From NCBI GenBank assembly GCA_002269645.1, contig NIVC01003153.1, positions 52,346 through 116,345 on the forward strand: a stretch of 64,000 nt of DNA. The letters are read 5' to 3'. The translations under genes and the position numbers were made by a program. This document shows, in pieces, positions 9,101-63,490 of this stretch (position 1 is its first letter; every line of letters begins with the position of its first letter). The notes under the pieces are model-generated. The model did not search any database. It saw only the letters and a program-made list of their open reading frames with translations, and was not told the origin of the DNA. The DNA is from Macrostomum lignano. Taxonomy: Eukaryota.

Positions 9101-12100
9101 AGTACCCCTACCTTCAATAACGGACGCCGATCGGAGGTGCTGGATGCCACCCTCGCCACGCCCAGGCTCTTCCGGAGCACTAGGGAGTGGCGGGTGCTTC
9201 CTGAGGCGTCCCTCTCCGATCACAAGTTCATCTCTTTCACGCTGGCCAGCGCCCGTAACGCAGGCCAGCTTTACTGGAAACGGAATGCTAGGAATACCGA
9301 CTGGACCGCCTTCAGGCTTGCCCTGGAGGAGACCTATCGTTGCACTAGCACTCCAGTCTCCATCAACACCTGCGAAGAAGCAGATGAATTTGCGGCCGCA
9401 CTTACGGACTCGCTCACTGCTGCCTTCGAAGCCTCATGCCCACTAAAGGCATATAAAGGCAAACAGTCGGCCCCATGGTGGAACCCGCAGCTTGGCGACC
9501 TCCGTCGCAGAACCAAAAGGCTTCACCGCAGGGCCCAAAAAACTAAAAACCCGGCCGACCAAACCGCCTACCTGAACTCTATCCACGAGTTCAAGAGGCA
9601 GGTTAGGAACGCCAAAACCAACAAGTGGCGCGAATACTGTGAGGAACTTGAGGGCTCCCGCCCCACCTCCAGAATCGTTAAAGCCCTCACCCTGGACAAA
9701 ATGTCCAAACTCTCCTCAGTCAAGAGAGCCGACGGCTCGCTCACTGAGAACCCAGGAGAAACACTGGAAGCGATGCTAACAGCGTTTTTCCCGAACGAGC
9801 CAGCTAGGCCCGACCCCCCTGACCACTCAGTGGGCGGTCACGTACTGGCTGACTCAATCATCACGGAGGACCGCGTTACTAAAGCTGTCTCCTCCTTCAA
9901 ACCCTTCAAATCCCCAGGACCGGACGGCGTTGTGCCAGCCTTCCTGCGGGAGGCGGTGAAATGCACCGGTTTCCTGCGGAACCTTTGCCGGCTTCTGAAA
10001 GCTTGCATTGTGCTCGGCTTTGTTCCGAAATCCTGGACCGAGGCCAAGGTGGTCTTTATCCCCAAGCCTGGCCGACCGGACTACCGGTCCATTAAATCCT
10101 TCAGACCAATTAGCCTCACCTCCTCATTGGTGAAGCTGTTAGAGAGACTGGTGCTCTGGCGCCTCCTCTCTGTGGAACTGAAGAACAAGCCGCTCAGTGA
10201 GAACCAGCATGCCTTTCGGGCAGGCAGGTCCACGGAGAGCGCGCTTCACGTTCTGGTTGACATGCTGGAGAAAGCCGTTCTTGGTAATGGCTACGCTCTC
10301 GCTGTCTTCCTCGACATTGTTGGAGCCTTTGATAATGTCCTCTTTGAGGCTTTTGACAGAGCTCTACGTGCTAGAGGAACCCACTCGCACCTCACCCGGT
10401 GGATCATGTATATGATCAGCCACCGTACTGCCACCGCACACCTGTTGGGCCACCAACGGACGGTAACCGTCTGCAAAGGCAGCCCCCAGGGCGGTGTCCT
10501 CTCTCCAGTTCTCTGGAACATGGTCATCGATGAGCTCCTCCAGGACAGCCATCTTGACCCCATCCTCAAGGTCGGTTACGCCGATGATGTCACTGCCGTG
10601 GCATCCGGACCGTCACCTGAAACCCTTAGAGATCTTTTGCAAAACTTCATTCGCTCTGCTGAACGTTGGGCGGACAGGTGCGGCCTCAGGCTCTCCGAGA
10701 CCAAAACTGTCGCGATCATGTTCACCAGCAGGGTAAACTGGCGTATTCGCCCACTAAAGCTTTACGGGGTGGAAATTCCATCCTGCAAGCAAACCAAGTG
10801 TCTCGGCGTTACGTGGACCACCGGCTGAGCTGGTCCACCCACGTCCAGGCCAAAACCAAAAAAGCCCTCGCGATTCTTGCGCAGCTGCGCAGAGCCGTCG
10901 GCACCACCTGGGGCCTCACCCCAAAGCGTCTCTGGTGGATCTATACCGCAATGGTCCGACCGGCCGTTACTTACGCCGGCCTGGTCTGGACCAGCGCCTT
11001 GCAGATTAAAACCTGCCACGAAGCCCTCAAAAAGGTGCAGGGACGTGCGTGCCGCATGATCCTGAATGCCCCGCTCTCTGCTCCTTTGACGGCCTCAACG
11101 CCTTTCTCTGCCTCCCGCCTCTGGACATCTTTGCCCGTCGCGAGGCTGCTAAAACCACCCGCCGGCTCATCGAGGCTGGTGTTAGCTTCAAGCCACAAAG
11201 AGCGATGGCGAAGCGCAAGCTCCTGCCGCACTCTGATCTGTGCCTTAAAGTTCTGGAGGAGAGTGGGAGTGCGGCTGTCCTTTCGGACGCTGAGCCGCGC
11301 TCCCTCAATCTCTACCAACGCTTCAAGGTCACGATCCCCTCCAGGGAGAACGCCAACGACAGCTGGGCCCCTCAGGAGGTTCACTGCTTCACTGACGGAT
11401 CCTCCAAAGACGGTTTATCCGGCTTTGGAGTCTGTATCCTTATCAACGGCCGCGTGATTGCTACTCACGCCCAACACACTGGCAGACTCTCCAGCGTCTT
11501 CCAGAATGAAGTCCTTGCCATCAGCTCCTGTGCAGCTGAGCTCCACTGCAGGGACTTCAAGGACAGAAGAATCTTCTTCCACTCTGACAGCCAGGCCGCT
11601 TTACAGGCCCTGTGTCACACCACTACGAACTCCCGAACAGTCCGCGACTGTATCGGGCAGCTCAACAAGCTGGCTCGGAGAAACACCGTCCGGCTCACGT
11701 GGATTCCAGGACACGCCGGTTTCAAAGGTAACGAGCTCGCTGACTCCCTCGCTAAGGCGGGCTGTTCCGGCTCGCCCCTTGGCCCCGTGCCCCTGGCCCC
11801 CATCCCCGCCACAGTCATTAATCGTCAGATTAACGACTGGGCGGACATCCTGCACTTGCGCAGATGGGATGGTATCTCCAACTGCCGCCAATCTCGTGCG
11901 GCAGTGCCCAATCCGTCCCTCAAGCTGCGGAGAATCCTTTTGAATCAAAATCGAAAAGATATCCGCGCTCTCACTATGACCTTCACAGGTCACGGTTGCT
12001 TTGCCAGGCACTGCTTCCTCCGATGTGTTCGCCGGAGTGAACTCTGCCCCTTCTGCAGCCTCGAGAATGAAGATGCCAAGCACTTCGTCTGCTACTGCCC

Positions 12101-15100
12101 GGCCTTCAACCGAGACCGGCTCAACCACCTCGGGCCCAACCCGTCCCTGGACGACGTTTGCCGGCCCGAGAACATCCCACGGCTCATCCGGTTCCTCCGG
12201 GCCACCAAGCGAGCCTCCGTCTTCCCCACCGAAGACAACGCTGTAGACAGGACCGGCAGACCTCCCTGACCGGCCCCGCGCCCTAGCCTATGCGGGTCTT
12301 TCAGGGATTAGCGGAATGGGCGACGCTCGCCTCCCCGCTGCGTCTTCGGACCGCCCTGCAGCTAAGTCAAGTAAGTCAAGCGGTAAGGAAGGCCACATCG
12401 CCCGCCGGTGCCCTGCTGGCGGATCTCAGGGCCAAGGTCGCTGCTTCAACTGCTCCGGCTGGGGCCACAGCGCGGCTGTCTGTCCGTCAAAGGCTCGGCC
12501 GTCGGGAAACTTCTGAGGGTTGGCAGCGAAGGGCCAGCTCCAACCCGTCAATCAAGTGCCCAATCTGCACTCTCAATCTTCGTGCGTGCGCTTCTGCAAG
12601 GCAAGGAGGTCAGTTTCTTGCTCGACACTGGCGCACAGACATCCTTGATCAGCCGCAGCCTCGCGCAAGTCTGCGGCCTTCAGATCGAGCCCGGTGGAAG
12701 CTGCTGCCCGACTTCGGTCGATGGTGGCCGCCTGAGTTGCATCGGGATTGCCCGAGCCACAATTCAAGTCGGCCAGTCAGTCAAGGTTGTCCATCAGCTC
12801 AACGTGGTGGAGAACATCAGTCTGGATCTCATCCTCGGCATGGACTTCATCACCCGAACCACCCGAGAGCTTCAGATCGACATCGTTGGTAGGACCGTAT
12901 GCCTCAACGGAGAGAAAGTCCCGTTCTTAAACAGCAGCTCAAGCGTCCGAATGGTGACCGGCACCCTCGTTGCTCGAGTGGAAAGCAACACAAGTGTTCC
13001 AGCACGAAGCGAAAAGCTGGTGTGGCTCCGCGTCAAGTCGGAAGACGAGCAAGGCATCTTCGAGCCCGACGCCAACTTTACCCAAGCGACTGGTTTGCTT
13101 GTCTCGAGAGTTTTGACCGTTTCAGCTGATCAGAAGATTCCAGTCCGGGTGTGCAATTTAGGCTCCGAGGAGGTGCTACTCTACGCCAACAAGGCCGTCG
13201 GCTCTTTTGAAGCTGCCGACCTGATCAACAACAGCGCTGGCACAGTCAAGCAGTTGGACTGCTGGGTTGTCAACCCTGACTTGGATGCGGCTGACAGGCA
13301 GAGACTACTGGCACTACTCAAGGCGAACGGTGACCTGTTCAGCACTCACGAGTACGACCTTGGCTCCACCGCGCTGCTGAAACATCGTATCGAGCTGCAG
13401 CCCGGCACGCAGCCCTACAAGCAGCGCCAGCGACCGATTCCGCTGCCGGTTCGTGACCAGGTCGACCAGAAAATTGGCCAGATGCTGGAGCACGACATCA
13501 TTGAGCCGTCCAACTCGCCCTGGGCCAGCAATCTTATCGTCGTCCGGAAAAAGAGCGGCGACATCCGCCTATGCACCGACTGGCGTCAGTTGAACGCTGT
13601 GACCATCAAGGACGCCTACCCCCTGCCGCACCTGCAACAATCGATGGATGCTCTGGCGGGCTGCTCTTGGTTTACCACCATCGATTGCAAGCAGGGGTTC
13701 AACCAGGTCGTGGTCGACGAGGCAGACCGCTACAAGACTGCTTTCTATTCCACACGAGGCCTTATGCAGTTCAAGAAGATGGGCTTCGGTATGTGCAACT
13801 CTCCTGCGACCTTCCAGAGGCTAATGGAGCTCGTTATGTCCGGCCTGACCTGGGAGGAGGTGCTAGTCTACGTGGACGACTTGATCGTGTTCAGTCGGAG
13901 CTTCGAAGAGCATCTGGCCAGCCTGCGCAAAGTTTTCGACCGGCTGCGAGCTGCGGGACTGAAGCTCAACAAGGACAAGTCGGTGTTCGCTCACAGGAGC
14001 GTGAAGTACCTGGGCCACATCGTCAGCCGGGAAGGAATTCGGCCGGATCCGGACAAAGTGGAGGCCCTGGCCAAGATTCAGTCACCAAGCTCTGCCGAGG
14101 AGGTGCGACGATTCATCGGCATGTTGTGCTTCTATCGCAGATTCATCAGGGACTTCAGCAAGACAGCGGCACCACTGCATGCCGCAACACAGAAGACGGG
14201 CTTCACCTGGACAGACGAGTGCGAGACGGCCTTCCAGACGCTCAAGGAGCAACTTGGGCGAGCACCTGTGCTTCGCCTGCCGGACTTCCGCCGACCATTT
14301 GTCCTGAGCTGCGACGCCAGCGCCTTCGCAGTGGGTGCGGTTCTCTGCCAGCGTTACGGAGACGCGGAGCTTCCAGTGGCATTTGCCTCCAGGACCCTCA
14401 ACAAGGCGGAACGAAATTACTCGGCCACTGACAGGGAACTGCTCGCCTTGGTTTGGAGTCTCAAGCACTTCAGAGCCTACCTGTGCAACGTGAGAGACTT
14501 CACTGTGTTTACCGATCACCAGCCGCTCAAGGGCCTGCTGCAGACCAAGGAGCCAGAGGGTCGGCTGGCACGTTGGCTCGACACCATCCAGCAGTTCAAT
14601 TTCGCGCTCTGCTATCGGCCAGGGCGGGAGAACGTGGTGCCAGACGTGCTCAGTCGGACGGCTGTCACTCAACTGGCAAATCGCGATGACTTCCTGGCAG
14701 AGCAGCTCCGAGACAGCCTTCTGCAGAATGTCTTCAAGGCGATCAGTGACGGCTTCGTCCACCTGTCCAAAGGCTGTCGGCAGCGAGTCGAAGAATTCCT
14801 AGCAAATGGCGACATCCAGATCGGGCAACACGGTGAGCTGGTCCGGCAGGGCAAACCGGTGGTGCCCAGTCACCTGCGTGCGCAGTTCCTGGCTGACGCG
14901 CACGACGCCGCCTGCAGCGGTCACCTCGGCACAGACCGAACGCTGGACAAGCTCGCCGACCGCTGCTGGTGGCCGGGCATGCACAACGACGTCAAGAACT
15001 GGGTCGCCAGCTGCGCCGCTTGTCTTCGGCGGAAGAACAGCAGTCGGCCGCAGCGAGCACCACTGCAAGCGACTCCACTGCCGTCGAGGCCATGGGAGAT

Positions 15101-16630
15101 GGTCCAGATCGATATCAAGGGTCCGCTGCTAAGGACACCACGAGGCAACAGTTACGTGCTGAGCATTGCATCTGTGACTGCTTCTCAAAGTGGATGGAGA
15201 CCTGCGCTCTACCAAGCATCGAGGCTGAGCGGGTGGCCGACGCTCTGGTCAGGCAGGTAGCGCTTCGGCACGGCGTCCCAGACGCAATCCACAGCGACCA
15301 AGGGCGTCAATTCGAAAGCCATCTGTTCCAGTCCCTGTGCCAGCGGCTCGGCATGCAGAAAAGCCGCACTTCGCCTTTCCATCCTAGCGGCAACGGCCTG
15401 GTTGAGCGCGGAAACCGAACCCTTGGTGACATGCTAGCGACGGTTGTGGCAGAGGATCAGGACGACTGGGACCTCCAACTTGCCTTCGTCACGCGGGCCT
15501 TCAACAGCTCGGTGCACTCGACCACGGGCCTGTCGCCGTACCAGACGCTGCACGGATGGCCACCAAGGCTGCCAATCGACTCCAAGCTGCCCAAAGCATC
15601 GGATGGCTTCACTGATGCGCTGGACTTTGCAGAGGCGACTCAGAGGCGCCTGCTGGACAGCCGGGCGCGTGTCCATCAGCAGCTGCAGGCGTCGCAGACC
15701 GAGCGCAACGAGCGGTACAACATGGAGACTCGGTTCCGGCCGTACAAAGAGGGCGACTTGGTGATGCTGAGCTGCAAGGTGGTGAAACCTGGCAGATCAA
15801 AAAGCCTCAGTAACCGCTGGACCGGGCCGTACATCATCCTGAAGAGGCTCGGCGAGGTCAACTACCGAGTGCGGCCGGCCTCGGGTCCCGGCGTGCGGAT
15901 GCGACGCAGGCAGGTGGTGCACCACGACCGGCTCAAACCATTTGTGGAACGGCGCAACTCCTTACGGCCCGGCGACGACCTGCAGGCTACCGCAGACGAG
16001 ACTGCTGACGGACTGGTGGACCCTCAGCTCCAGGCGCCTGATGCCTGGGTGCAGCTGTTCGACGGTAACGGCGGACCGGATGAGACAGCGACCGAGACCA
16101 ATCAGCAAGAGGCTCAGCTGCCGAGACGGTCGGCCAGAGAGCAAAGACCTCCTGATTTTTATCGCCCAATGTGAATGCTTGATTTTCTGTGAACTTTTGC
16201 CATAGACATTGTGTTGCGTCTTTTAAACCCGGGGGGAAGTGGTGTGAGCATTCTATGCACCTAAATATTCTAATGTTGTTCGTAGTCCTATTTGTACGTG
16301 CTTGCGTTTGGGGGGGTGGTTGTTTGCAACGTGCGGCTGCGCCCGTGTGTGTGCAACACCCAAACCCCACCTCAATCTTCGGCTTATAAAATATATCGAT
16401 TGTCAGGCCTGAGCGCCAAGTCGGTTTTCTCACAATCTCAAACCTCGCTCGTTTTACAGAATGGAGACTAACTGACTAACTAACTAACTGACTGACTAAC
16501 TGACTGACTGACTGACTAACTGACTGACTAACTAACTGACTGACTAACTGACTGACTAACTGACTAACTGACTGACTAACTAACTGACTAACTGACTGAC
16601 TGACTAACTAACTGACTAACTGACTAACTG

Positions 16631-28873: not shown

Positions 28874-29653
28874 ATGTCGTCAGAAGAAGCCAATGTCGGA
28901 GGCGCAGCCGAAAGCGCCGAAGCCGAACAGAGCGGCTACGAGTCGGTGCTCTGCGTGAAGCCCGATGTGAAAGTTTTCCGCCTACCGCCTCGCCAGTCGA
29001 ATCGGGCCGTACGCGCGGCCGACTGGCAGCTGGAGTCGCCCGATTGGTCCGGCCGGCTGCGCGTGGTGGCCAACGGCAGCCAGCTGTGGGTGCGGCTGGA
29101 GGACAAGACTAGCGGAGTCCTGTTCGCCCGCTGTCCGGTGGACGCGCATCCCGGCCTGGCCATCGAGCCCGTGGCCGACTCCAGTCGCTATTTCGTTCTG
29201 CGCATCCGCGATGACTCCGGCCGGAGCGCCTTCGTTGGCATCGGATTCGACGATCGGAGCGACGCCTTCGACTTCAACGTGGCCGTGCAGGATCACTTCA
29301 AGTGGCTGCGGCAGGAGGAGGAGGCGCGCCAGGCCGCCAAGGAGATGGAGGCCGGGCCGAAGCTGGACCTCGGCTTCAAGGAGGGCCAGACCATCAAGAT
29401 CAACATCAACACTCGCCGGACTGCCGACTCGTCGACGGCCAGCGGTGGCGCCAGTGAAGCTTTGACCAAGTCGCCGAGGCGGGAAAGACAGGTGGGGGTG
29501 GCTGGTGGGGCTGGCGGCCTCGGACTGCTGCCTCCGCCGCCCAGCAGCGGGCGGAACACCCATTCCAGGGGCGGAAGCGGGGGCGGAAGCGGGGGCGGAA
29601 GCGAAGGCGGCGCTGGGAGCAACCTGCCCGATTTGCTGGACAGCCTGGGCTGA
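28874..29653 (+). CDS. NECAP1: Adaptin ear-binding coat-associated protein (NECAP1/2-like), single exon
   Basis: PHear domain [60 protein letters not shown]; [16 protein letters not shown]; GLLPPPP. Confidence 0.92.
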
Positions 29654-51572: not shown

Positions 51573-53367
51573 TCTCACCGTTCTCTTTTCCCTCTTAGCT
51601 TCACCAGGTTCCTTGGAACACCTCGAAGGAAAAAGTGCCTACCAAAACTGAACGCACAGCGAATATTTCTTAATCCTGAGTTCAGCCAACTCCTCAAAGC
51701 TTCAGACGATTCAGCCTCTCCTTAGCAAAGTACATTCCGTCATTTCAAATATTCTTACTTTTTTCTCAATCTATTCTGCGATACGCCTCAATTGTCCGGC
51801 CCACAACTGTCAGTCTGTCTGTCTGTCCAGCACATTCTAAATTCAGTCTTCCAAGAACTGCCCCACGGCTACAAACTGCTTGTCAGAAACTCTTCAGTTC
51901 CGCCTTATCTCAGTTTGAAATCCTGGCCCATGAGCTGGCAACACCCATGGTTGGCCCACTGTGATTGATCTCGCTGTGACTTGGCGTGACCAAGGATGCC
52001 TCTAGTTTGAAATCTGGACTGGCAGCGGAACCTTTCTCGGACTTGGTTTTCAGGGACTACTAAAACTTTTTGGAATGGAAGCTGAGCCTTTGATTGTTCA
52101 GGGACGCCTAAAACCACTCTGGATTGGAAGCTGAGCTACTATTTAATAAGGACTCCCAAAACTTCTCTGGACTGTAAATGAGAATAGAAAATTAGTTTAC
52201 TTAGAAAAATGCAGAAATCAAGTTTGAGTCTGCATCTGCAGTCTATATTGGATCATACCGGTATTTTAATTAAAATTCCAAAAAGTTCTAGAAAGATAGC
52301 TTTATTGGCTCCAGTCCAGACATTCTAATCAAGTCGTCCATGACGCGGAAAATAATGGGTGGGGATTTTTCACACAGTTCCCCGGCATTTGTCCATCAGC
52401 TCGTGAAGGGGGCGGCGCGGGGCGCGGCAAGCAATCGGAATTGATGGATTGCATTGTGGAGTGCCTCGACCGCTTATATTATTAAGCACTCCCTGAACTC
52501 TGCCTCTGCAGCTCCCGTACCCACCAGAGGTGACCCCCAGATCCCACATTCCCCAGCCAAGTTTCAATAATATGGGCCAATGGCATTTTTATTCATAGGC
52601 AACCCCATTGAGAGCAATGACTGGCGGATATTGGCATCACCAGATAGTTATTGACTTTCGCTAAAGTTGCTGGGGTACTTCTCAGTCACTCTTCATCTGG
52701 GAGCTGAGTCTGAATAATGCTCTGATCACTTTTTTATGTCAGCTCAGCTTTCAGTATCTATTGATTATCGGTCATTTCAGGGTGCAGTTCAGGGTTCAGT
52801 TCAGGGTGAGTAGTATACGTTTTTTTGACACAAAGCCGATTTCCTTATGGCGAAATACATAGTAAGTACAGGCCCAAAAAAATGGCAGAGTCCGAAATTT
52901 CATGTGCACGCAGTCTGAAATTCCATGTGCACGCAGTCTGAAATTCCAAGTGCACGCTAAATATCTTTTACGCAACGTGATTATTCAGACGAATTGCATA
53001 TCCACCTGTCCAAAATACAAGTAACCGATTCTAGCAATGGTGACACAAACACACTTCAAAGGATTCCATTCAAGACAAATTTACTCCAAAGCTATTCACA
53101 CATTTCAAGTGTTTTTGAAATATTGAAAACTTGTGAATATTATCACCCTTTTGAAGAAAGATAGTAAATGATCTATTCTTGAGTGCCTATAGAATTTTTG
53201 CACCAACTTGAGCAGATGGTTTACAGATACTATGTCAACAACTGCGTCAACATGCTTCTTCTTTATACTATATATATATACGAACACACTGACACAGAAA
53301 ATATTAAATAACTTAAACCAAGTTTACATTATACTACTTGTTCAACTATACTTACATCTTAAGTGAA

Positions 53368-54229
53368 ATGAAGCGATCACGTCAGCAGGAATTGGCCGAG
53401 CGCTATGTTAAACAAGGTAAGATAATCACCTACTCTAGTTCAGTTTTCTTTTTTAGATTGACTGTTCGCTATAGTTTAGTTTCTAGATTGATTGTTAGTT
53501 CGGTTTCTGTTTAGACCGATCCTCTGTTTGTTCAGTCTCTAGATTGATTTTCTGCTAGTTCGGTTTCTGTTTAGACTAATACTCTGCTAGTTCAGAATTT
53601 CTAGATTGATTGTCTGCTAGTTCGGTTTCTGTTTAGACTGATTCTCTGCTAGTTCAGTTTCTATATACATTGTATACATGCACCTATACCAAATTTCCCT
53701 CATCTTATCCATTATTATAGCATTCAAGAATGGTTTCTTCACGCGGCCACCACCAGATCAGTGCAAACGCATTTGCCACGACACCACCACATCCAATTCT
53801 GCTGCAAGAGCATCATATTCTACATCTCTCGCCAGAGTAACCTCGATTCATGTCGAGAGACAGACAACTGAGCTAGATCGCATTTACACAAGAACTGATG
53901 TTATTCAGTCAATTAGGCAGCAATCGAACCCACGACCAACTGACCAACTGCAGTATGCACCACCACCACCATCACCAACCAGCTACAATGACCCAACAAA
54001 GCAAACTTGCAGTAAGCCTACAAGTACCAAACCAACGACAGCAACTGAAACACCATCATCATCAATTGCTATTTCTACCCAAGTTCAACCGCTGCTAAAC
54101 TCGCCAATTATTGTACAGAAGGACATCAAGTCTGTAAAAGTCTCTCAAATGAGCACAGGCTTCTACCAAGTAGAATTACCAAAGACCTGTAATACAACTC
54201 AAGTATTTGAATATTGGGACCTATCTTAA
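53368..54229 (+). CDS. Maverick uncharacterized protein, 2 exons (53368-53416, 53721-54229)
   Basis: MKRSRQQELAERYVKQ, then a phase-1 GTAAGA donor; TTATAG acceptor gives an in-frame AFKNGFF..; S/T/P-rich body. Confidence 0.55.
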
Positions 54230-54482
54230 AAAGACATTTTTTCTAACTCTTCATAAAATTTTGCCAGCAATGTGTCCAAGTAATTGCTCTTTTAGTATAT
54301 ATCAAACAAGTCTGTAATCAATAATATAATCTCTATAAATTCATTATTCTAAAAAATTCTTTCAATTTTATTCGCCATTTATTGAAATTATTTAATTCAA
54401 TATAAAGTCAATATCTTGTACAGTCATCATTAAACAAAAATTATTAATCCATGCAAATAATTTTTTTTTCATACGTTTCTTT

Positions 54483-55170
54483 AGCCATGGTCTGGCTTTT
54501 GCCTCAACAGTATGATTTAGCTGTGGTCCAGCTTTTGCCTCAACAGTATGATTTAGCTGTGGTCCAGCTTTTGCCTCAACAGTTTTTAGCCGTGGTCCGG
54601 CTTTTTTGCCTCAGCAGTATGATTTAGCTGTGGTCTAGCTTAAAACTGCATCAACAGTGATTTAGCTATAGTCCAGGCTTAACTACCTCAACGATGATTT
54701 AGCTATAGTCAAGGCTTAACTGTCTCAACAGTAATTTTAGCTGTTGTCCAGACTTAACTGCCTCAACAGTGATTTTAGCTGTGGTCCAGGCAACTGTCTC
54801 AACAGGGATTTAGCTGTAGTCCGATTAGCTTAACTGTCCAGTTATTTAGCTGTGAGCCAAGCAGCAGCACCCGTCTCAACAGTGAGAATTAGCTATGGTC
54901 AGCTTTACCTCAACTGTGATTTGGCTGCTGTGGTCTAGCATAACTGACTCAACAGTAATTTTAGCTGTAGTCGTCCAGCTTAACCACCCGTCCAGTTTTA
55001 TAACCATGGTCCAGCTTAACCACCGTCTCAACGTACAGCGATTTAGTCGTGGTCCAGCTTAACCGTCTCAACGTACAGTGATTTAGCCATGGGTCTAGTA
55101 GCAATTAACCGTATCAATAGTGATTTAGCCGTGGTCCAGCTTAACTGTCTCAACACAGTAATTTAGCTTA
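54483..55170. repeat. Degenerate ~30-bp tandem repeat (CCTCAACAGTGATTTAGCTGTGGTCCAGCTT) within the Maverick left arm
   Basis: ~20 variable copies. Confidence 0.8.
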
Positions 55171-55878
55171 GTCCAAACAGCATTTGTGTGTCAACTGCAC
55201 TGACTGCATGCGGTTATAGCAGCGGCAGTCATTATAGTCCCAACAAGCTGCGCGTCGCAGCATGATAGTGTAACTCTATATAGCTTCTGCTCAATATAGG
55301 ACTGCAAAAGCTGAGTTACAACTATACCTTTTTCTGTTTGAAAAGTAACACTCTATATATAGGTTACTCAAGCAATCTCTTGTCACCGTGCGAGCTAAAA
55401 AATTCCAACATGCAAGCAAAACTTTCAATAAATTAATTTCATAGCACCGCGTGCAGCTTATTTTTACTCTAAAATCCAAGATTGCTAATTTTTCAAGTCG
55501 CAAAATATTTTAATTACATTCTACTTGAGAACAAAACCAATCTAATGAAGCAGCAACCAGCAGTCTTCTTATTAAACGCTTGCCATCGTGTTACTCTTGC
55601 AAATTTATAACTAGTGTGCCTAAGATTCATTAATTTTATTGTATAAAATATCAACCTACATTTGCGTAAAATTAGACCTAATCATGCAACCCACCCTAGA
55701 AACTTATGCCACCTTTGGCACGCAACAATGTCTTAATCAGCACGCAACAATTAAATTTGTTTACTAGTTCACAAACAGCATGCAAAGCTTGCTATAAATA
55801 CAAGACCCGAAATGGTCAATTTTTCATGAGCTCAATCATTACAGCAAAAGAAATACTATATTCAATTGCTTGTAAGAC

Positions 55879-57077
55879 ATGGCAGCTTGCATCAAGACGG
55901 AGTCAATTGTACGCTCCGACTCGAGTCCGATTTTTTACGTTGGAGAGCAGTCTACAACCACGACTGGTTCGTCCTGCCAGTTTCGATCTATTGCGTGGAA
56001 ACCATCAATCGAGTGTACAAAATGGTACCCAATTATATTGCAAACCAAGGCTCCAATGGAGCTTTTTCGTGGAATCGCAGAAAGGCCAGAGCTCGATCAT
56101 CCGTCTTGCAGACACGACTCTCGCGACGCAGTAAGTGTCCAATTTCATCCAGACAGCTGCGATAAGGAACTCTTCCACTCTCTCCGGTGAGCACCATATT
56201 AAATTTATACAATTAATTTTAGGAAACTATATTCATAATTTATATAATGTTTTGCAGTCAAGTCGAAAAAGGTCTATCGGTCAAGTTGAACGAGATTCAA
56301 GATGCTCGACCCTTGGCACGACTAACAAAACCAGCTCATCAGCATGCTAACGACGTCCTCGAGTTTGTGCCTCAACAATGGCTGGCTATAAAGCCTGCTT
56401 ACCCTTGTGCCACAATCAGGATCAGCAACGATCATCCACACGGGAAGGAGGTGTCCATTTCCGATTTCAAAGGTGTCAGCGGTACCTACCAAATGACAGT
56501 GCAAGCAACGAGCTTGTATTGTCCAAAAGGCTGCCTCGTCTGGCGCATTACATTCGCTGTGCGCTCTCTGACACTCATAGAATCTTCCGACAACATGTTG
56601 CAGCGCCTCGACATGTTCAAGGGAGTGCTTGCACACCTACCCGCGACCAAGTCAGCAATTAGAAGCAGGAGTCCGTCCCCAACATCTACCTGTGAGCAAG
56701 AAGAAGCAAATGAACAAAGCCTGCAGAATTCAAGCCAGGTGACACCTGCCAAGTCACCTGCAAAGCGTCGGTCTACCACCACCGTATCGAAGAAGTCGAC
56801 TACATCGAATGCAGCGCCAGCCTCTATTGAACCGCCGCCTAAAAAGCAAGTTCGAAAACGCAGCGGTGCAAAACAGCAAAACAATTCTGCCGAAGCTGGT
56901 GCAGATGGCACAGACTGGGTGGAGGCTCCACCAGCAAAGATCTTGGTGAGTACACCTGCCTCTGGAACCAGGGTAGCGTCCAAGGAGACAGCATTTTTAA
57001 AGCGTGCTGCTGCGGACGCTACTACAGCTAGCGTGTCTTCATCGGACGACTCGTACAGCAGCTCTGATGATGAGTAA
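55879..57077 (+). CDS. Maverick uncharacterized protein, possibly OB-fold ssDNA-binding; 2 exons (55879-56186, 56258-57077)
   Basis: 71-bp phase-2 intron GTGAGC..TTTTGCAG joins ORFs 55879 and 56247; K/S/T-rich linker and acidic tail SSSDDSYSSSDDE. Confidence 0.6.
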
Positions 57078-57287
57078 CAAAATTTTTGACTAATTTTATC
57101 CAAGTTTTAACTAACTTATTCCACTATATTTATCAAATTTTTGGCTAGGGAAATATTATTTTTTAGGGAAAAGCTCAAAACATTTTTTGCTACTCCTTGT
57201 ACGCTAACCAGGTTTTGTAATTTAATATTAGAATTTACGATAGTATAGTCATGTTTAACTTTTCTTATTATTTATTTTCCGTTTTAG

Positions 57288-57845
57288 CGACTTGTCCTAT
57301 TAATAGTTACTGCGAGTCTGAAGCTGCACCCGTTTGAAAAATTTGATTTAAAGCAGACCAAACAGAAGCTACAGACCAGAAACCGGTTTTGCAAACTATT
57401 CCTAAGCCGACCAACAATGCTAAAGACAATTTATTCAAATGCTAAAATCCAACTTTATCCAGCAGGAAAACTAACTATATATGGCTGTAAATCAAATTCT
57501 CAGATAGTCTCAGTTTTACGATTTATCAACGACACTATTAATTGTGTAGATTTTGATTCAGTAAAAATTCAGAGCAGTACCTATGTCGGCTTTATTGGTC
57601 ATCTTTGGCCAAAATTCGGTTTCTCTAGTCTAAAAAGATATGCAGGCTACTATTCGAATTATCTGGTTGGATACGATGCAGAAAATTTCCCACAAGCAGT
57701 TTCTGTTAGATCAGCATCAAAACCAAGGCTTTTTTGTAACATATTTTTTTCGAAAAAGTTTGTTATTATGGGCGTTCAAAACACTCATGAATTGAATAAT
57801 ATTCTTAACCATGTCAAGGATTTTTTAATCTCTGTTAATAACTAA
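57288..57845 (+). CDS. TATA-box-binding-protein (TBP)-like protein, divergent; frame opens right after an AG acceptor, first ATG at 57417
   Basis: RLVLLIVTASL..KFDLKQ (cf. QNIVSTVNL..LDLKT); KIQLYPAGKLTIYGCKS (cf. ALIFSSGKMVCTGAKS); VKIQSSTYVG (cf. FKIQNMVGS); YDAENFPQ..KPRLFCNIFFSKKFVIMGV (cf. YEPELFPG..KPRIVLLIFVSGKVVLTGA). Confidence 0.8.
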   Translation, partial: RLVLLIVTASLKLHPFEKFDLKQTKQKLQTRNRFCKLFLSRPTMLKTIYSNAKIQLYPAGKLTIYGCKSNSQIVSVLRFINDTINCVDFDSVKIQSSTYVGFIGHLWPKFGFSSLKRYAGYYSNYLVGYDAENFPQAVSVRSASKPRLFCNIFFSKKFVIMGVQNTHELNNILNHVKDFLISVNN

Positions 57846-58068
57846 ACTTAACAAGTAAACAATTGCTGTCAAATCGCAGTTGCGATGCATTCTTTTACAA
57901 ACATTTTGTCTTTTTTTATTTATTTACCAATTGTTTTCTCTAATAGTAAACGTGTCAGCTATACCTATAACTAACCAAATCATCATTTTTCTTACAGCCG
58001 CAAATGACAAACCGGATCATCTATTAATATTATGCTCGATACGCTCGTTGTCGAGCTAGGTGCACACA

Positions 58069-58782
58069 ATGCCGCGTGCACAATGCCAAATCTGCAGAAA
58101 AAAGTTCAGTAATCAAGCCGAGCTGCATGCTCACTCGCATGGTGCTTGTTTTTCACCGCAACGATTACTGACCGGATCGCTGCAAAACCTGATCGAAAAC
58201 CCACCAGATGGGTGGTCCATCGCTTTGCGCGAGTCAGCTCATCGTGGTCGGGTAAATTTTGTCGAATTTACTCCCACTCTTGAACAACAAGGCAACAGCT
58301 CTGGCGAGTTACTTCCTGGCGAGTTGATTGCGTCTTTAAGAGAACCAATATTTAAAATATTGGAAAAAATTGGCTCACCCAGTTTATTAATAAGAGTCTG
58401 CTTTCACTTGAAAGTGACACTATTTCGACCGAAAACAGCAGCAGACGACAACGATGGCTCGAGCAGCGAAGAGATCATTTCGGTCTATTTTAATACCAAC
58501 ATTGCGACAATATCATTTGATGAGACGATTACAAACAGTGACATGCTGTTATCTCCCGAGGCCTACAATGACTGGTTCGCACGCGTTATTAATCAGTTGT
58601 TAATAAAAATTGACAATTTTCAATCTCGAGGTAGTAATTGGCAATATAGAGCAATCGAGCAGCTAGACTTGATGCTCTGCGTTTATCGCAAAAGCCATGC
58701 AAGCACACTGTCAACAAATACGTCCCACGGTGGTGTGGGGGCGGGCGGCGGCAGTGGTGGTGGTGGCGGCGGTGGTGGTGGT

Positions 58783-58814
<32 letters not shown>

Positions 58815-58950
58815 GCGCGGGGAGTCCGGTCCAGTCCGGTCCGGTCCAGTCCGGTCCGGTCTGGTTAAGCAGCAATCGTTTAAAGTTCCAGTCTCAATCG
58901 GTCGCAAAGCTGGAGCAGTACTGCTTCTAAAGCCGCACAGAGCAGTTTAA
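58069..58950 (+). CDS. C2H2 zinc finger + N-terminal region of Maverick protein-primed PolB (catalytic core absent)
   Basis: CQICRKKFSNQAELHAH; KIDNFQSRGSNWQYRAIEQLDLMLCVYR (cf. EFxERGSGWxLxxIxxLxxNINKY preceding pPolB); in-frame poly-Gly; stops ~490 bp before dUTPase. Confidence 0.65.
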
Positions 58951-59437
58951 AGCATCAAGACTATTTAAGAGTCTTACACAAGCGACAACTTGTGTTTTCG
59001 CGCATACAGTCCATTCGTTCTCGAAAACAGAAAGTTTTTTTTGATGCAACAAAGAAAACTTGCACTAAGCTTCTTCGATACGAAGCGATCCTGGACAAGT
59101 TCAATTAATTCGCTACCCTTTGGACACTGGCACTTGGCTAATTAATTAACAATATGCTCTGATCTCTTTTGTTGTACAAAGTAATAGCATGCTATAGAAG
59201 ACTGTAACCCATCATTAATTTTTTCATTGATCATTATTTACAATAAATAAATGATACCGGCATTCGTTTAAATTATAATTTTAGCACTTTTTTGTGTTTA
59301 ATTATTTGAAAAAGTATATTTTTTATAGTTAGATTCTCAAGACTAAGCTTGTGTTTGTAGTAGACGTAAATGTAGTGCTATCGTTCATGTTTCAAGAAAA
59401 AAAACTTTTTTTTAAACTTTCAGCTACAAGAATCGAC

Positions 59438-59920
59438 ATGAATCCCGAGCAGCAGCAGCAACAACAACTAACTGATCGTAAGCTTTTAGTTGAACGTCTA
59501 TACGATTCGGCAACGATTCCGACCCGAAAAACTGTCGGGTCGATCGGGTATGATCTTTGCGCTGGCGTCGATGGTACCATTCCGGCCTACGAGTCCCGGA
59601 GTGTGCGAACCGGACTCAAAATTCGCTTACCGCCTGGTACCTATGGCAGGATAGCGGGACGTTCCAGCATGGCTCTGCACAGCTTATTTGTTGGCGGTGG
59701 CGTAATCGACCCCGACTATACTGGTGAAATCTGTATAGTCTTGTTTAATTACAGTCCGGAAGACTTTGAGTACTATGCCGGGCTCAGTATTGCACAACTG
59801 GTTCTGGAGCAGGCCGTGCTTGCTTCAGTCTATGTGACTGAAGCAGACAATTCGATTCGGATGATTGAGCCGCCGACCAAGCGGCGCGGCTTTGGCGGCT
59901 TTGGCAGCACTGGCCAATAA
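59438..59920 (+). CDS. dut: Trimeric dUTPase
   Basis: All five motifs: GYDL, GRSS, GGVIDPDYTGEI, IAQLV, RGFGGFGSTG. Confidence 0.95.
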   Translation: MNPEQQQQQQLTDRKLLVERLYDSATIPTRKTVGSIGYDLCAGVDGTIPAYESRSVRTGLKIRLPPGTYGRIAGRSSMALHSLFVGGGVIDPDYTGEICIVLFNYSPEDFEYYAGLSIAQLVLEQAVLASVYVTEADNSIRMIEPPTKRRGFGGFGSTGQ

Positions 59921-60011
59921 GTATAATAATAATAATAAACTGATTTTTTTCTTTGGTGATTGGTGCACTATGCGAGAGCTTTGTAAATACTATAAGCAAT
60001 TTTAAAAATTT

Positions 60012-60455
60012 ATGCCTAAAATATATGTTGTAAAAATGTCTCCAGCGAAAGATCGAGGTTTTAAAAAGAAAAAGAAGAGCATTCGTAAAAAGAAGAAATC
60101 TATTAGAAAGATTAATAAAAAGCAACAAGGTTATGGTGTCGTAAATTGGTTAATTAATCATTTACCATTTGAAGCACATTTACCCGGCGGATATCAGTTT
60201 TGTGGTCCAGGTACGCAACTGCAAGCTAGGCTAGCAAAAGGACAACGAGGAATTAATCGGCTTGACAATTTGTGCATGCTTCACGACGTGGCCTATGATA
60301 AAAATTCTGACGTGCAAGAGAGGTTAAAAGCTGATAAGCTATTAGAATCTGGTGCACGAGAGATTGCCCACGATCCGTCTACTGGTTGGAAAGAAAAACT
60401 AGCTGCGAAGTTGGTTACCAAGGTTATGCAAGTTAAGCAACGCTTTGGTGCTTGA
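60012..60455 (+). CDS. Parvovirus VP1u-type phospholipase A2 protein (PLA2X) with basic N-terminus
   Basis: HLPGGYQFCGPGT..GINRLDNLCMLHDVAY..R..ADK. Confidence 0.88.
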   Translation: MPKIYVVKMSPAKDRGFKKKKKSIRKKKKSIRKINKKQQGYGVVNWLINHLPFEAHLPGGYQFCGPGTQLQARLAKGQRGINRLDNLCMLHDVAYDKNSDVQERLKADKLLESGAREIAHDPSTGWKEKLAAKLVTKVMQVKQRFGA

Positions 60456-60457
60456 AA

Positions 60458-61147
60458 ATGCAGCAGCCATACAATATGCAACTAGCTCACGATTCTACAT
60501 TTATTATTGCTGGACCTTCAAACTCGGGTAAAACTGAATGGACGTTGCGTTTGTTGACTGAACGAAAAGAATTATTTGATAAAAAACCGTGCCGTCTTGT
60601 TTGGTGCCATGGATCAAGTTTGAAACCAGACGATCAACAACGAATTAGAACATGCTGGCAAAAAAGCGGTCTTGACCCTATTGTTTTTGTACCCGAATTC
60701 ACACCACAGATGATTAATCGTTTTTTACCACACGATTTGGTTGTTGTTGACGACTTGCAAAGCGAGATTGCTAAGTTGCCAGAATTTACTAGTATGTTTA
60801 CAAAGCATGCGCATCATATCCCTTTGACTTGTCTGTACCTTTGTCAAGGTCTTTTTAACAAGTCTGATCCAGAAGCACGCATGCGAAGTTTATCAGCTAG
60901 TTATATTTGTCTAACTCGTAGTGTGCGCGATCGAACCACAGTTGAACATCTCGGTCGACAAATGTATCCGCGTAATAGTAGGTTTCTAGTGAATGTGTAT
61001 GAAGACGCAACAAATAACAAACCTTTTTCATATTTATTCATTGACCTGCGGCAAGTGACACCAGATTTTTTACGATTGAGAACAGGAATATTTTCTGGTG
61101 ATGAACAAGTTGTCTATACTCGTGAATGTGATGCAAAGTTTGTGTAA
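60458..61147 (+). CDS. FtsK/A32-like DNA packaging ATPase
   Basis: Walker A IIAGPSNSGKT, Walker B VVVDDL, FTKHAHH, KPFSYLFIDL..RLRTGIF. Confidence 0.92.
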   Translation: MQQPYNMQLAHDSTFIIAGPSNSGKTEWTLRLLTERKELFDKKPCRLVWCHGSSLKPDDQQRIRTCWQKSGLDPIVFVPEFTPQMINRFLPHDLVVVDDLQSEIAKLPEFTSMFTKHAHHIPLTCLYLCQGLFNKSDPEARMRSLSASYICLTRSVRDRTTVEHLGRQMYPRNSRFLVNVYEDATNNKPFSYLFIDLRQVTPDFLRLRTGIFSGDEQVVYTRECDAKFV

Positions 61148-61204
61148 TATTATTATAAGCAAATTATAAACTGTTGTCAATATTAGTTTGTGTTTTATTT
61201 CAAA

Positions 61205-62194
61205 ATGAGTTTTTACGTTTTTTTGCCGTCAAACGATATCAGTTACGAAACCAACTCGCCTAATGAATTTCGAGTGCGACTAACTGAACCAATAAATTTA
61301 TTGAACGGATTCTTCGAGGTTGCACTAGTTGAATTACTGTGCCATGGAGCAATTACGACGCCAAATGCTCATCGTGAGCGTCGATTTGAAGTTCCATATT
61401 TTGCGGACATTGACTCAATAATACGATTAAAGAAAAACTATTGGGGTCGTGTTTGGGCAGAGGCAGACTTGGATGCTTACGTTTCCTGGCAACCGTCTGG
61501 TACAGATGAAAAATTTGCCTGGCTTTTACGAAATTCAGGCGAAAAAACTATTGGATTAGAACTACCAGTTACATTTATGGACGCTTTCAAATTTGACTCT
61601 TGGAAGAAACTTTCTGGACTTGTCTCGGAAAAATTATCAAAACCTGCCGCTGGTAGTGTACAACCACCGGATGGTTCATACTTGGATTTGATAAAAAGTC
61701 TCGACAATACTCTAGCGCTAGTACCTGAGAACTATTATGTTTTTTATTGTGTTCTATCGCCTGGTGAAGCTATACGACTTGTTTCGCATGGAGACTATCT
61801 TCGAAAAACGGAAGGAGAAGTGTACATCAAAGTACACCAATATTGGTTGAGAAATCGTGTTTGGCGCATTAACAAAACCTACTTGGATGCTGTGCTACCT
61901 TCTCCGATGCCTAGTAAAACGGTTTACATGTACTGTTACACAGATATAATCGAGTATCAAGCAGTGGGAAGTACATCAGTACCGTTGCTTCGAGTTGTGG
62001 AACTCCAACAAAAGAAAAACGGAGAACTTATACGCGATAGCAGTGCATTGCAAACACCCTACTACTTGAAAACAAATCGACAACAAATTCACGAGATTTC
62101 GATTCGACTATCGGACCAGCGCGGAAAACCGTTTAATTTTGATCCGGGAGCACACGTTGTTGTCGTACTGCATTTTAAACATAGGTCGGACTAA
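61205..62194 (+). CDS. Minor capsid protein (penton, single jelly-roll)
   Basis: N-terminal FYVFLPSN..NSPNEFRVRL..FEVALVEL; C-terminal YCYTDIIEYQAVG..PLLRVV..EISIRLSDQRG..VVVLHFK. Confidence 0.85.
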   Translation: MSFYVFLPSNDISYETNSPNEFRVRLTEPINLLNGFFEVALVELLCHGAITTPNAHRERRFEVPYFADIDSIIRLKKNYWGRVWAEADLDAYVSWQPSGTDEKFAWLLRNSGEKTIGLELPVTFMDAFKFDSWKKLSGLVSEKLSKPAAGSVQPPDGSYLDLIKSLDNTLALVPENYYVFYCVLSPGEAIRLVSHGDYLRKTEGEVYIKVHQYWLRNRVWRINKTYLDAVLPSPMPSKTVYMYCYTDIIEYQAVGSTSVPLLRVVELQQKKNGELIRDSSALQTPYYLKTNRQQIHEISIRLSDQRGKPFNFDPGAHVVVVLHFKHRSD

Positions 62195-62250
62195 TTTATA
62201 AGCAAAGATTAATTGTGTAATAGAAAATTTTGTGAATTTGTTTTGTAAGA

Positions 62251-62655
62251 ATGAGCGAACTAACAGAAAAAGGAAAACAAAATGCTCGCTCATTGTGTCA
62301 GTGTGCTTTTTTACTACAAATTGTTTATCGGCTAAAGCATCCAAAGCAGAGAAAAAGTTTTTTACAAACACTTTCAGAGTCGGAGATACGATGTCTAGTA
62401 GACTTTCTGTTTAATATTATTAGTGGACGTATTAAAATTAGTAACTGTAACAAAAGACGACTTGAGAAGCATCGCAGATATATACGCCAGCTTTTGGAAC
62501 AGAAGACTCCAATTACTGCAAAAAGGAAAATACTTGTCCAACACGGAGGATTTTTACCTTTTTTGGCTCCAATTATTGCCGCTCTACCTGCTATAAGCAC
62601 TGCGCTTGGGATAACGTCTGGAGTAGTTGGTACCGCCGCGGAGCAGCGAATTTAA
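62251..62655 (+). CDS. Conserved Maverick/adintovirus small basic core-like protein with GGFL and C-terminal amphipathic helix
   Basis: EIRCLVDFLFNIISGRIKI..KRKILVQHGGFLPFLAPIIAAL. Confidence 0.75.
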   Translation: MSELTEKGKQNARSLCQCAFLLQIVYRLKHPKQRKSFLQTLSESEIRCLVDFLFNIISGRIKISNCNKRRLEKHRRYIRQLLEQKTPITAKRKILVQHGGFLPFLAPIIAALPAISTALGITSGVVGTAAEQRI

Positions 62656-62688: not shown

Positions 62689-63378
62689 ATGCGAACTAAC
62701 GAGAGTAGTAGTTTTCAACGAATGTATCTAGTACCTGAATCTGTGTATCAATCTGCATGTCAAGGTGCAGAGCAAGGATCGTCACCAACTGCTGAGACAC
62801 CTCGAAAAACTGAAGTTTTAGACGCACCGCAAGATGCTCTGGCAAAAAATATGGTGGAAATGAGAGACCAAATGGATAACTTGGACAAGGAAATGGAAAA
62901 GGAGCCAAATTACACAGCTCAATTGAAACGAAGCAGATTGGAAGACAAACTTTTAAAATTGCGCAAAGTCTATCGCACTGGAGACGAGGACAATCTGTCA
63001 CTTGTTCGCAAAGGGACTACTGTAAGAAGTTCATATGCCAGCGAATCAAGGGAAATTCCTAAAGTTTTTTTACCACGTTTCGAAGCTCTCGCTCAAAACC
63101 TATTTTCGGACATGGACAAGAATGCAGAACCAATGCTGGCTAATTTGACTGATGCCGAGATACAAGATCTCATGGAATATGTTGTTCGAGACAGACCGCT
63201 TAAGCGACACGAGACTCAACCGCCTAGTGGACTAAAAACATTTTTAGACTTTCTTCGAAAACGTGGAATCGCAGCAAACCAAATCGGGCGTCATGTACGA
63301 AACGAGCTAATGTCTGCTCCAAAAACTGTTGCAAAGGAGGATCTTAGTCTGTTTGAAAATTATCAAACACTGAATTAA
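62689..63378 (+). CDS. Conserved Maverick uncharacterized protein upstream of integrase
   Basis: RMYLVPE N-terminus; DLMEYVVR..PSGLKTFLDFLRKRGIAANQIG C-terminus; position typical of Mavericks. Confidence 0.65.
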   Translation: MRTNESSSFQRMYLVPESVYQSACQGAEQGSSPTAETPRKTEVLDAPQDALAKNMVEMRDQMDNLDKEMEKEPNYTAQLKRSRLEDKLLKLRKVYRTGDEDNLSLVRKGTTVRSSYASESREIPKVFLPRFEALAQNLFSDMDKNAEPMLANLTDAEIQDLMEYVVRDRPLKRHETQPPSGLKTFLDFLRKRGIAANQIGRHVRNELMSAPKTVAKEDLSLFENYQTLN

Positions 63379-63490
63379 GTTGTTTTAAAATTACAGATTA
63401 CGTTTTAACAAAATTGATTCGAGCACTATAAGCTTTTTAAAAAGGTTAATTTTTTGTTTATGAAAAATATATAGTTTAATAAGACAAACC

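Follow-up and report, generated by a model that had tools for sequence, protein, structure and literature searches.

Mavericks, also described as Polintons or adintoviruses, are bounded by terminal inverted repeats (TIRs) with AGTAGT termini and carry a protein-primed DNA polymerase, an rve integrase, a protease, an ATPase, two capsid genes, and PLA2-like and pX-like genes (available parts of PMC8097293 and PMC8502044). In vertebrates they have eight core genes, with the TATA-binding protein (TBP) not among them, and intact elements are intronless; the available part of the same study (PMC8097293) states that no particle has been seen for animal Mavericks. Here we describe a Maverick of the flatworm Macrostomum lignano that encodes a diverged TBP. 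The element lies in a 64,000-nucleotide stretch of contig NIVC01003153.1, hereafter the window, and its TBP-like gene occupies positions 57288-57845. It shares the features listed above, but unlike vertebrate Mavericks its lineage has conserved introns, a spliced leader, and a probable promoter word confined to late genes.

Nucleocytoviruses and mirusviruses, which are large and in many cases have an RNA polymerase of their own, also encode proteins with the TBP fold. TBP has been reported in mirusvirus-derived elements (PMC10675990, available part), and ORF24 of KSHV (Kaposi's sarcoma-associated herpesvirus) is a proven late-promoter TBP mimic that reads a TATT promoter (available part of PMC12529657). 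Introners are known from dinoflagellate Maverick-like elements (PMC11957031, available part). An earlier note on this DNA, made from the letters alone, had supposed that a Maverick TBP was undescribed. For animal Mavericks this mostly holds in print: the full-text literature covered, with most subscription journals outside it, contains nothing on an animal-Maverick TBP, a TATAAG word in Polintons, or transcripts of Mavericks or DNA viruses that carry a spliced leader, and word searches for TBP and TATA in the main texts of PMC10748475, 10.64898/2026.10.13.758929 and 10.64898/2026.06.19.733378 were empty. It fails for a related non-animal element, since Starrett et al. (PMC8502044) and the accompanying preprint list a TBP-like gene, in their available parts in a figure legend only and among elements mostly of non-animal hosts; the one supplement file of PMC8502044 searched gave no TBP hit. 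What is new here is a TBP start that probably depends on splicing and a spliced leader on a Maverick polymerase gene. The locus bears on how virion genes are timed and activated in Mavericks, which have no RNA polymerase. The earlier note had seen no RNA polymerase in the element, and the frame lists of full copies likewise show no frame of that size besides the DNA polymerase.

A diverged TBP gene inside a Maverick

The stop-to-stop reading frame at 57288-57845 spans 185 codons. It matches Pfam PF00352 (E 2.2e-7; score 31 bits, cut-off 22.9) in two stretches that correspond to both TBP repeats, and the best-matching sequences in PDB are TBPs of archaea and microsporidia. AlphaFold2, given an alignment of 15 rows with host TBP and TRF2 among them, modeled a two-repeat saddle with a mean pLDDT of 95.4. 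Among the Foldseek matches listed against PDB (ranks 1-44), all are TBP chains or TBP-containing complexes at TM ~0.6-0.8, and the viral matches in BFVD are TBP-like proteins of large DNA viruses (E 1e-9 to 1e-5). On profile match and predicted fold together, we consider it confirmed that the element encodes a diverged TATA-binding protein. The earlier note had read both TBP repeats in a frame of ~185 residues, three of the four DNA-kinking aromatics with the first one lost, and an AT-rich composition resembling that of the element. These readings all held up, the GC content being 0.34 for the frame and 0.40 for the element part of the window.

A homolog search with the single sequence found no match, and relatives needed a profile search. 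Exact look-ups of the window's frames found none present in the protein collection searched. The first ATG of the frame comes only at codon 44, and gene calling that relies on ATG misses the gene, which may explain its absence from the protein databases searched.

The element starts with AGTAGT at 52809 and extends to the contig end at 64000. The earlier note had allowed that the gene might lie outside the TIRs or be absent from sister copies; it lies inside the TIRs of copies C593, C753 and C424, which are ~14.7-15 kb long with inverted arms of 83-98 nt. A 6-bp target site duplication could be read in no copy, as none had both flanks (contig ends, N runs, nested inserts). A search of the genome, with 97 candidates scored, yielded 83 matches, including 22 identical full-length copies (the window's among them), 4 at 99%, and subfamilies at 40-46% identity. 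The polymerase gene of the window's copy has lost ~3.2 kb (at 58950-59000). Of the identical copies, 21 of 22 have the short TBP-to-ATPase spacing of this deletion and the remaining one aligns through it, while three copies have the full polymerase span. Such a set of identical copies with one common deletion is a recent burst of a non-autonomous derivative.

Between subfamilies, the TBP gene shows constraint. Comparison of B1 with B2 gives a pairwise dN/dS of 0.15, and five close pairs that have 5-16 differences give values of 0.13-0.47; comparisons of subfamily A with the others are saturated at synonymous sites. By this measure the gene is under purifying selection, and we regard it as real, widespread in Mavericks, and, judging from selection on its sequence, functional. 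The reading in which the frame is a decaying passenger or a chance frame has in its favor the missing start codon, the failure to see a spliced TBP transcript, the deleted polymerase of the window's copy and the 22 identical copies that are uninformative on selection. It is nevertheless largely refuted and very improbable, given that the frame stays open across six subfamilies of 40-46% identity, that dN lies far under dS, that splice signals are conserved, that the fold is modeled at pLDDT 95, and that relatives exist in unrelated Mavericks.

Conservation of the predicted DNA-binding face

Where residues are numbered as in yeast TBP, the numbers R98, K120, E186, R196, K201, V203, L205 and K211 are as we assume them to be. 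Most numbers were taken from Table 1 in the available part of PMC12529657, and the register of the first Phe was assigned manually. The intercalating positions F99, F116, F190 and F207 correspond to P42 (in the manual register), Y57, F134 and F153 of the window's TBP, leaving three aromatics of the four Phe of a canonical TATA-binding TBP. The P191 equivalent and the basic residues that contact the backbone are kept in this lineage. In all seven rows aligned, both central Asn are lost (N69 to L or Q, N159 to S or T), Q, T, T and N occupy the base-reading positions L114, V122, V161 and L205, and the acidic TFIIB stirrup (D130 and E132 of the window's TBP) is present. The invariant columns of the clade fall mostly on the concave DNA face (numbered here in the window's TBP): M44, Y57, T63, T98, F134, R141, R147, N151, F153 and K157. 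Helix 2 has one basic residue compared with five in host TBP, and the basic patch is lost; we take this surface to be the contact site for TFIIA, TAF1 and Brf1.

The Maverick protein shares with cellular TBP and TRF2 (host loci L051 and L057) the two-repeat saddle, three of the four aromatics, the P191 equivalent, the basic residues at the backbone and the stirrup. It differs from cellular TBP in being only ~20% identical, in the Pro at F99, and in the lost Asn, the four polar base-reading sites and the lost helix-2 patch. From its sequence, the DNA-binding face is conserved yet more polar, which likens it to the TBP mimics of beta- and gammaherpesviruses. KSHV ORF24 is likewise a viral TBP fold with polar residues at three of the four changed positions, but it retains the full set of four Phe, is without the TFIIB acids, is large, binds polymerase directly and needs five partners (available part of PMC12529657). 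In the Maverick the stirrup acids are kept, and frame lists contain neither a polymerase-binding domain nor the genes of the five partners. By inference, the two systems would also share late promoters marked by a variant TATA word (TATT in KSHV, TATAAG in the Maverick) and the use of host polymerase II. The herpesvirus mimics and the Maverick TBP are not one homologous family; convergence is likelier.

TATAAG precedes late genes

In this lineage TATAAG is the top six-mer before 26 late-block genes, with 12 occurrences within 100 nt where 1.1 are expected. In four subfamily copies, with genes located by similarity, it stands within 250 nt upstream of 21 of 27 late genes (background 5.9%). All eight sense TATAAG sites of copy C1136 fall in the late block, the window has five sites, and the word almost never occurs in the early block. 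Instead, the early gene is preceded by canonical TATAAA in subfamilies A and B1, 102 nt upstream in B1. This distribution suggests that TATAAG is likely a private late-promoter word of the lineage.

Splice signals at the TBP start

The TBP frame lacks an initiating ATG at its 5' end, and splice signals are conserved around it. In all six subfamilies (A, B1, B2, C, D and E) the frame starts, in frame, right behind a pyrimidine tract and YAG, and a phase-0 donor GTRAGY sits at the same codon of the upstream gene, gX. Two other starts were tried and rejected: an ATG 37 nt upstream lies in a different frame and does not occur in copy C84, and starting at codon 44 would remove strand 1 and helix 1.

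In the available parts of PMC9851317, PMC12582326 and PMC8629364, the flatworm spliced leader ends in AUG and can supply a start, cis- and trans-splicing can share an acceptor, and operon gaps are ~100 nt; PMC6880638 holds nothing on leader biology. We placed contigs of four sequencing runs (of 24 listed) on 55200-58700. None of the runs is on record as RNA; joints show RNA in three of the four, and depths and uncovered parts were not used as evidence. Contigs of 3/4 runs skip the 71-nt GT..AG intron 1 of gX. One contig, from run X7, is joined at the acceptor at 57997, upstream of the DNA polymerase gene, to 23 foreign nucleotides that match the published flatworm leader, which ends in ATG. 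All 18 listed differences of this contig also occur in the full-span copy C84, as against 0-1 in four deleted copies. The exact genomic matches of the leader are followed by G in 58/58 cases and by a GTAAG donor in 30/58, which are the leader genes. None of the 58 continues into the element, so a genomic leader-bearing retrocopy as the source of the joint is unsupported. The other 28 matches (L101-L106 and other loci) have no donor and look like leader-bearing retrocopies or repeats. Leader-AUG starts are known for host genes; here the leader is on a Maverick gene. These introns and the spliced leader show adaptation of the Maverick to host nuclear RNA processing.

The leader AUG would be in frame with TBP in 6/6 subfamilies. 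For the polymerase the situation differs between subfamilies: in A the polymerase has an ATG of its own and the leader AUG falls in a different frame, and in B1 no ATG occurs in the first 114 codons of the polymerase frame, which opens at an in-frame acceptor. We consider cis-splicing from the donor at 56946, which would give a gX-TBP fusion, the probable source of the TBP start; an AUG borrowed from the spliced leader is possible but doubtful. Both are in frame and can coexist.

What gX contributes to such a fusion is suggested by faint matches. It has no match in Pfam, PHROGs or PDB, its model reaches a pLDDT of 43, and a fold search with it was empty. Atlas leads of 0.85-0.89 (all <0.9) point to DUF2738 and Pox_I3 clusters, and a direct search against DUF2738 was blank, with its control silent too. 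Together with the acidic tail, the Atlas matches are a weak lead that gX may be a single-stranded-DNA-binding protein. In metagenomic Mavericks (L108, L110, L112, L124, L125 and L131), the gene just upstream of TBP, at the place of gX, is often PC4-like, presumably a single-stranded-DNA-binding coactivator.

Distribution and origin of Maverick TBPs

A TBP-like gene is present in 4/4 Maverick lineages examined in this genome, whose own genes include TBP and TRF2 in three copies each; spliced leader and match names identify the host as a Macrostomum flatworm. A metagenome scan gave 26 TBP loci, 16 of them with Maverick marker genes, 9 without a marker (contigs of 1.0-3.4 kb) and 1 on a different kind of contig. 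The metagenomic group, first defined by an RPxM motif, also includes TBPs without RPxM. IMG/VR scans for relatives returned no Maverick relative and one large-virus contig.

In trees, the window's lineage forms one clade (support 95-100) that nests among Maverick-linked metagenomic TBPs with support of 80-91, or 96-99 in trees with fewer rows, and is separate from lineages 2 and 3. The trees have long branches, were built after removal of ten database rows that were chimeric, duplicated or short, and fix neither the root nor the number of captures. L107 and L129, the two TBPs of large-virus type, branch separately from the Maverick clade. Grouping the lineage with host TBP in one clade is rejected (p-AU 0.001), and the protein does not group with host TRF2 either; its three aromatics also set it apart from TRF2/TBPL1. 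On this phylogeny the TBP is not a recent capture from the host. Of the earlier note's captured TBP, the Maverick-encoded homolog stands, and capture holds only as an old event, since the gene groups with neither host TBP nor TRF2.

The other lineages of this genome differ in how the gene is arranged. In the more numerous lineage 2 (e.g., L071:1192-1779 and L095:4019-4582 in G000) a separate TBP-like gene begins with an ATG of its own, shows dN/dS of 0.18-0.38 and overlaps, in another reading frame, the end of a frame we take to be exonuclease-like; no link to TATAAG was seen there. A third lineage (L134-L135 on G000:C291; L100) is ~13 kb with TIRs of ~1 kb, and its TBP-like gene is related to that of lineage 2 and has relatives in ENA, Logan and JGI data. 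A 10.5-kb TIR-bounded element (L137:1321-10000 and L138, G000:C175) has integrase, capsid, protease and ATPase, no polymerase, and a very divergent TBP-like gene; TATAAA stands before 2/4 of its late genes. Adjoining it (L138:9700-10000 and L139:1-7000, G000:C175) is a virus-like block with capsid-like and ATPase frames unlike those of the four lineages studied.

A candidate late-promoter factor and its alternatives

Taken together, these observations lead us to think that the Maverick TBP is probably a late-promoter factor. Host RNA polymerase II would transcribe the early block (gX, TBP, a nucleoside kinase in most subfamilies, and DNA polymerase) as one polycistron, and splicing would supply the start of the TBP exon, by cis fusion to gX or from the leader AUG. 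The viral TBP would then bind the element's own TATAAG word and recruit host TFIIB and RNA polymerase II, so that capsid, packaging and integrase genes would be switched on after the early genes. The earlier note had proposed that the protein redirects host Pol II or Pol III to viral promoters or acts as a decoy for TBP partners. The DNA face, the TFIIB stirrup and the private TATA variant argue for redirection of Pol II. Use of Pol III and a decoy role are disfavored, because the basic helix-2 patch is lost while the DNA-face residues are invariant.

Several observations weigh against this reading. On the protein, both central Asn and one kinking Phe are lost. TATAAG precedes one early gene, in subfamily C. 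It is not enriched in metagenomic TBP-bearing Mavericks (5/29 genes, background 8%) and precedes 0/3, 0/2 and 0/4 genes in the other three lineages of this genome; all four lineages examined have TBP, leaving no TBP-less Maverick as a control. TATAAG may also be close enough to TATAAA for host TBP to read. Among the pieces listed, no joint and no leader occurs at 57288 in any of the four runs, and contigs cross the TBP acceptor unspliced in three runs and the donor unspliced in all four; these contigs may be DNA or precursor from the >20 defective copies. No gX-TBP fusion was found among candidate proteins of 451-2000 residues, a weak test that left 354-451 uncovered. The probability of ~3e-5, from codon usage, that the gX donor is conserved by chance assumes six independent subfamilies and is overstated, since the subfamilies are related.

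The alternative that survives best, which we nevertheless hold to be unlikely, is that host TBP reads TATAAG and the viral TBP binds DNA otherwise: it would repress host TATA promoters, control the early promoter or, as a gX fusion, couple terminal replication to transcription. The single base that separates TATAAG from TATAAA fits this view, as do the lack of enrichment in other TBP-bearing Mavericks and the setting of the TBP gene amid replication genes, fused to the nucleoside kinase in subfamily E and with a predicted gX fusion. Harder to reconcile with it are base-reading residues that changed and then stayed invariant across saturated synonymous divergence, in the sole lineage with a strand-specific, late-only word, and an early promoter that uses canonical TATAAA in A and B1. 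Less probable still is a decoy that soaks up host TBP partners (TFIIB, TAF1, Mot1, NC2, Brf1) without binding DNA. Loss of one kinking Phe and both base-contacting Asn, as in TRF2, would suit a decoy, and so would the kept acidic stirrup, but invariant columns concentrated on the concave DNA face and a helix-2 surface stripped of its basic residues would not.

If the Maverick TBP does act as a late-promoter factor, it would represent a second, likely independent route to the strategy of the herpesvirus mimics and a natural TBP of altered specificity. A bolder version, which we advance only tentatively, is that Mavericks of 15-18 kb run a two-stage, herpesvirus-like programme from a single gene. 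Host spliceosome and spliced leader would divide the early polycistron, and one acceptor would yield two products, a gX fusion linking late transcription to genomes in replication and a TBP on its own with a borrowed leader start. If true, this would be a DNA virus whose core genes need the AUG of a host leader for translation. The late-promoter reading can be checked with one protein and one oligonucleotide in a transgenic flatworm model.

Features of the element and its surroundings

The gene order is gX, TBP, polymerase, dUTPase, PLA2-like, ATPase, minor capsid, pX, a conserved frame, integrase, a short frame, major capsid and protease, where integrase, major capsid and protease were taken from sister copies because the contig ends at 64000. 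Coordinates within the window are given in Table 1. In the full-span relative C84 the polymerase matches PF03175 and PF02945. The integrase matches PF00665 (rve) and has a chromodomain, and the adenovirus-type protease PF00770 is weak in the window's lineage (E 0.04) and over the cut-off in lineage 2. The ATPase and capsid genes have no Pfam match and are similar to genes beside integrase and polymerase in other elements; the labels ATPase and major and minor capsid are ones we presume from motif and position.

Table 1. Features of the Maverick element in the window, with candidate promoter words and splice sites.
Feature	Position	Strand	Remarks
Left terminal inverted repeat, AGTAGT start	52809..52905	+	Matches right ends of sister copies; inner end approximate
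Canonical TATAAA, candidate host-read promoter (inferred)	55793..55798	+	86 nt before first early-block gene
gX exon 1, ATG at 55879	55879..56186	+	Conserved in 5 subfamilies; donor conserved; no Pfam match
Intron 1, 71 nt, GT..AG	56187..56257	+	Joint in contigs of 3/4 runs; signals conserved in other subfamilies
gX exon 2: ~125-residue conserved domain, low-complexity linker, acidic tail, stop	56258..57077	+	
Predicted intron 2, phase-0 donor GTGAGT to acceptor TTTTAG	56946..57287	+	Would join gX to TBP; not seen spliced
TBP-like exon, 185 codons	57288..57845	+	Without own start codon; 5' end is in-frame acceptor
Spliced-leader acceptor upstream of DNA polymerase gene	57991..57998	+	First exon base 57998; one contig, run X7
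Protein-primed DNA polymerase, N-terminal part	58069..58950	+	~3.2 kb missing in window's copy
dUTPase	59387..59920	+	PF00692, E 2e-29
TATAAG, candidate late promoter before PLA2-like gene	59991..59996	+	
Parvovirus-type phospholipase A2-like virion gene	60012..60455	+	PF08398, E 3e-9
Packaging ATPase (putative)	60458..61147	+	Walker A motif and position; no specific Pfam match
TATAAG, candidate late promoter before minor capsid gene	61154..61159	+	
Minor capsid protein (putative)	61205..62194	+	N-terminal motif and position; no Pfam match
TATAAG, candidate late promoter before pX gene	62197..62202	+	
Adenovirus pX-like core protein	62251..62655	+	PF05829, E 1.5e-6
TATAAG before 229-codon conserved gene (62689-63378)	62592..62597	+	
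TATAAG ~230 nt before integrase start	63427..63432	+	

The region around the nucleoside kinase varies between subfamilies. In subfamily E (L023:5440-6846) the TBP frame continues without a break into a deoxynucleoside kinase. In B1 and B2 (L021:6516-7800) it overlaps the kinase by ~170 codons in another frame, and subfamily A has lost the kinase. The left arm contains an imperfect tandem repeat of ~33-36 nt (54480-55170) whose length differs among copies, and a 183-codon frame (53678-54229) with a hydrophobic N-terminus, a Thr/Pro-rich body and no Pfam match, which could be secreted. One sister copy has its capsid gene interrupted by a different polymerase-bearing element (L044-L045, G000:C2932:66727-75423), which has a PC4-like frame and inverted repeats of ~950 nt.

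Elsewhere in the window, a two-frame non-LTR retrotransposon lies inside or beside a Gypsy-like long terminal repeat (LTR) element (7035-12269 and 12290-16174), labels that we assume from motifs. Host exons on minus and plus strands (1003-23900 and 28874-29653), with long minisatellite introns, resemble what we take to be an N-end-rule ubiquitin ligase and a NECAP-like gene. The host TFIIB gene is split by introns.
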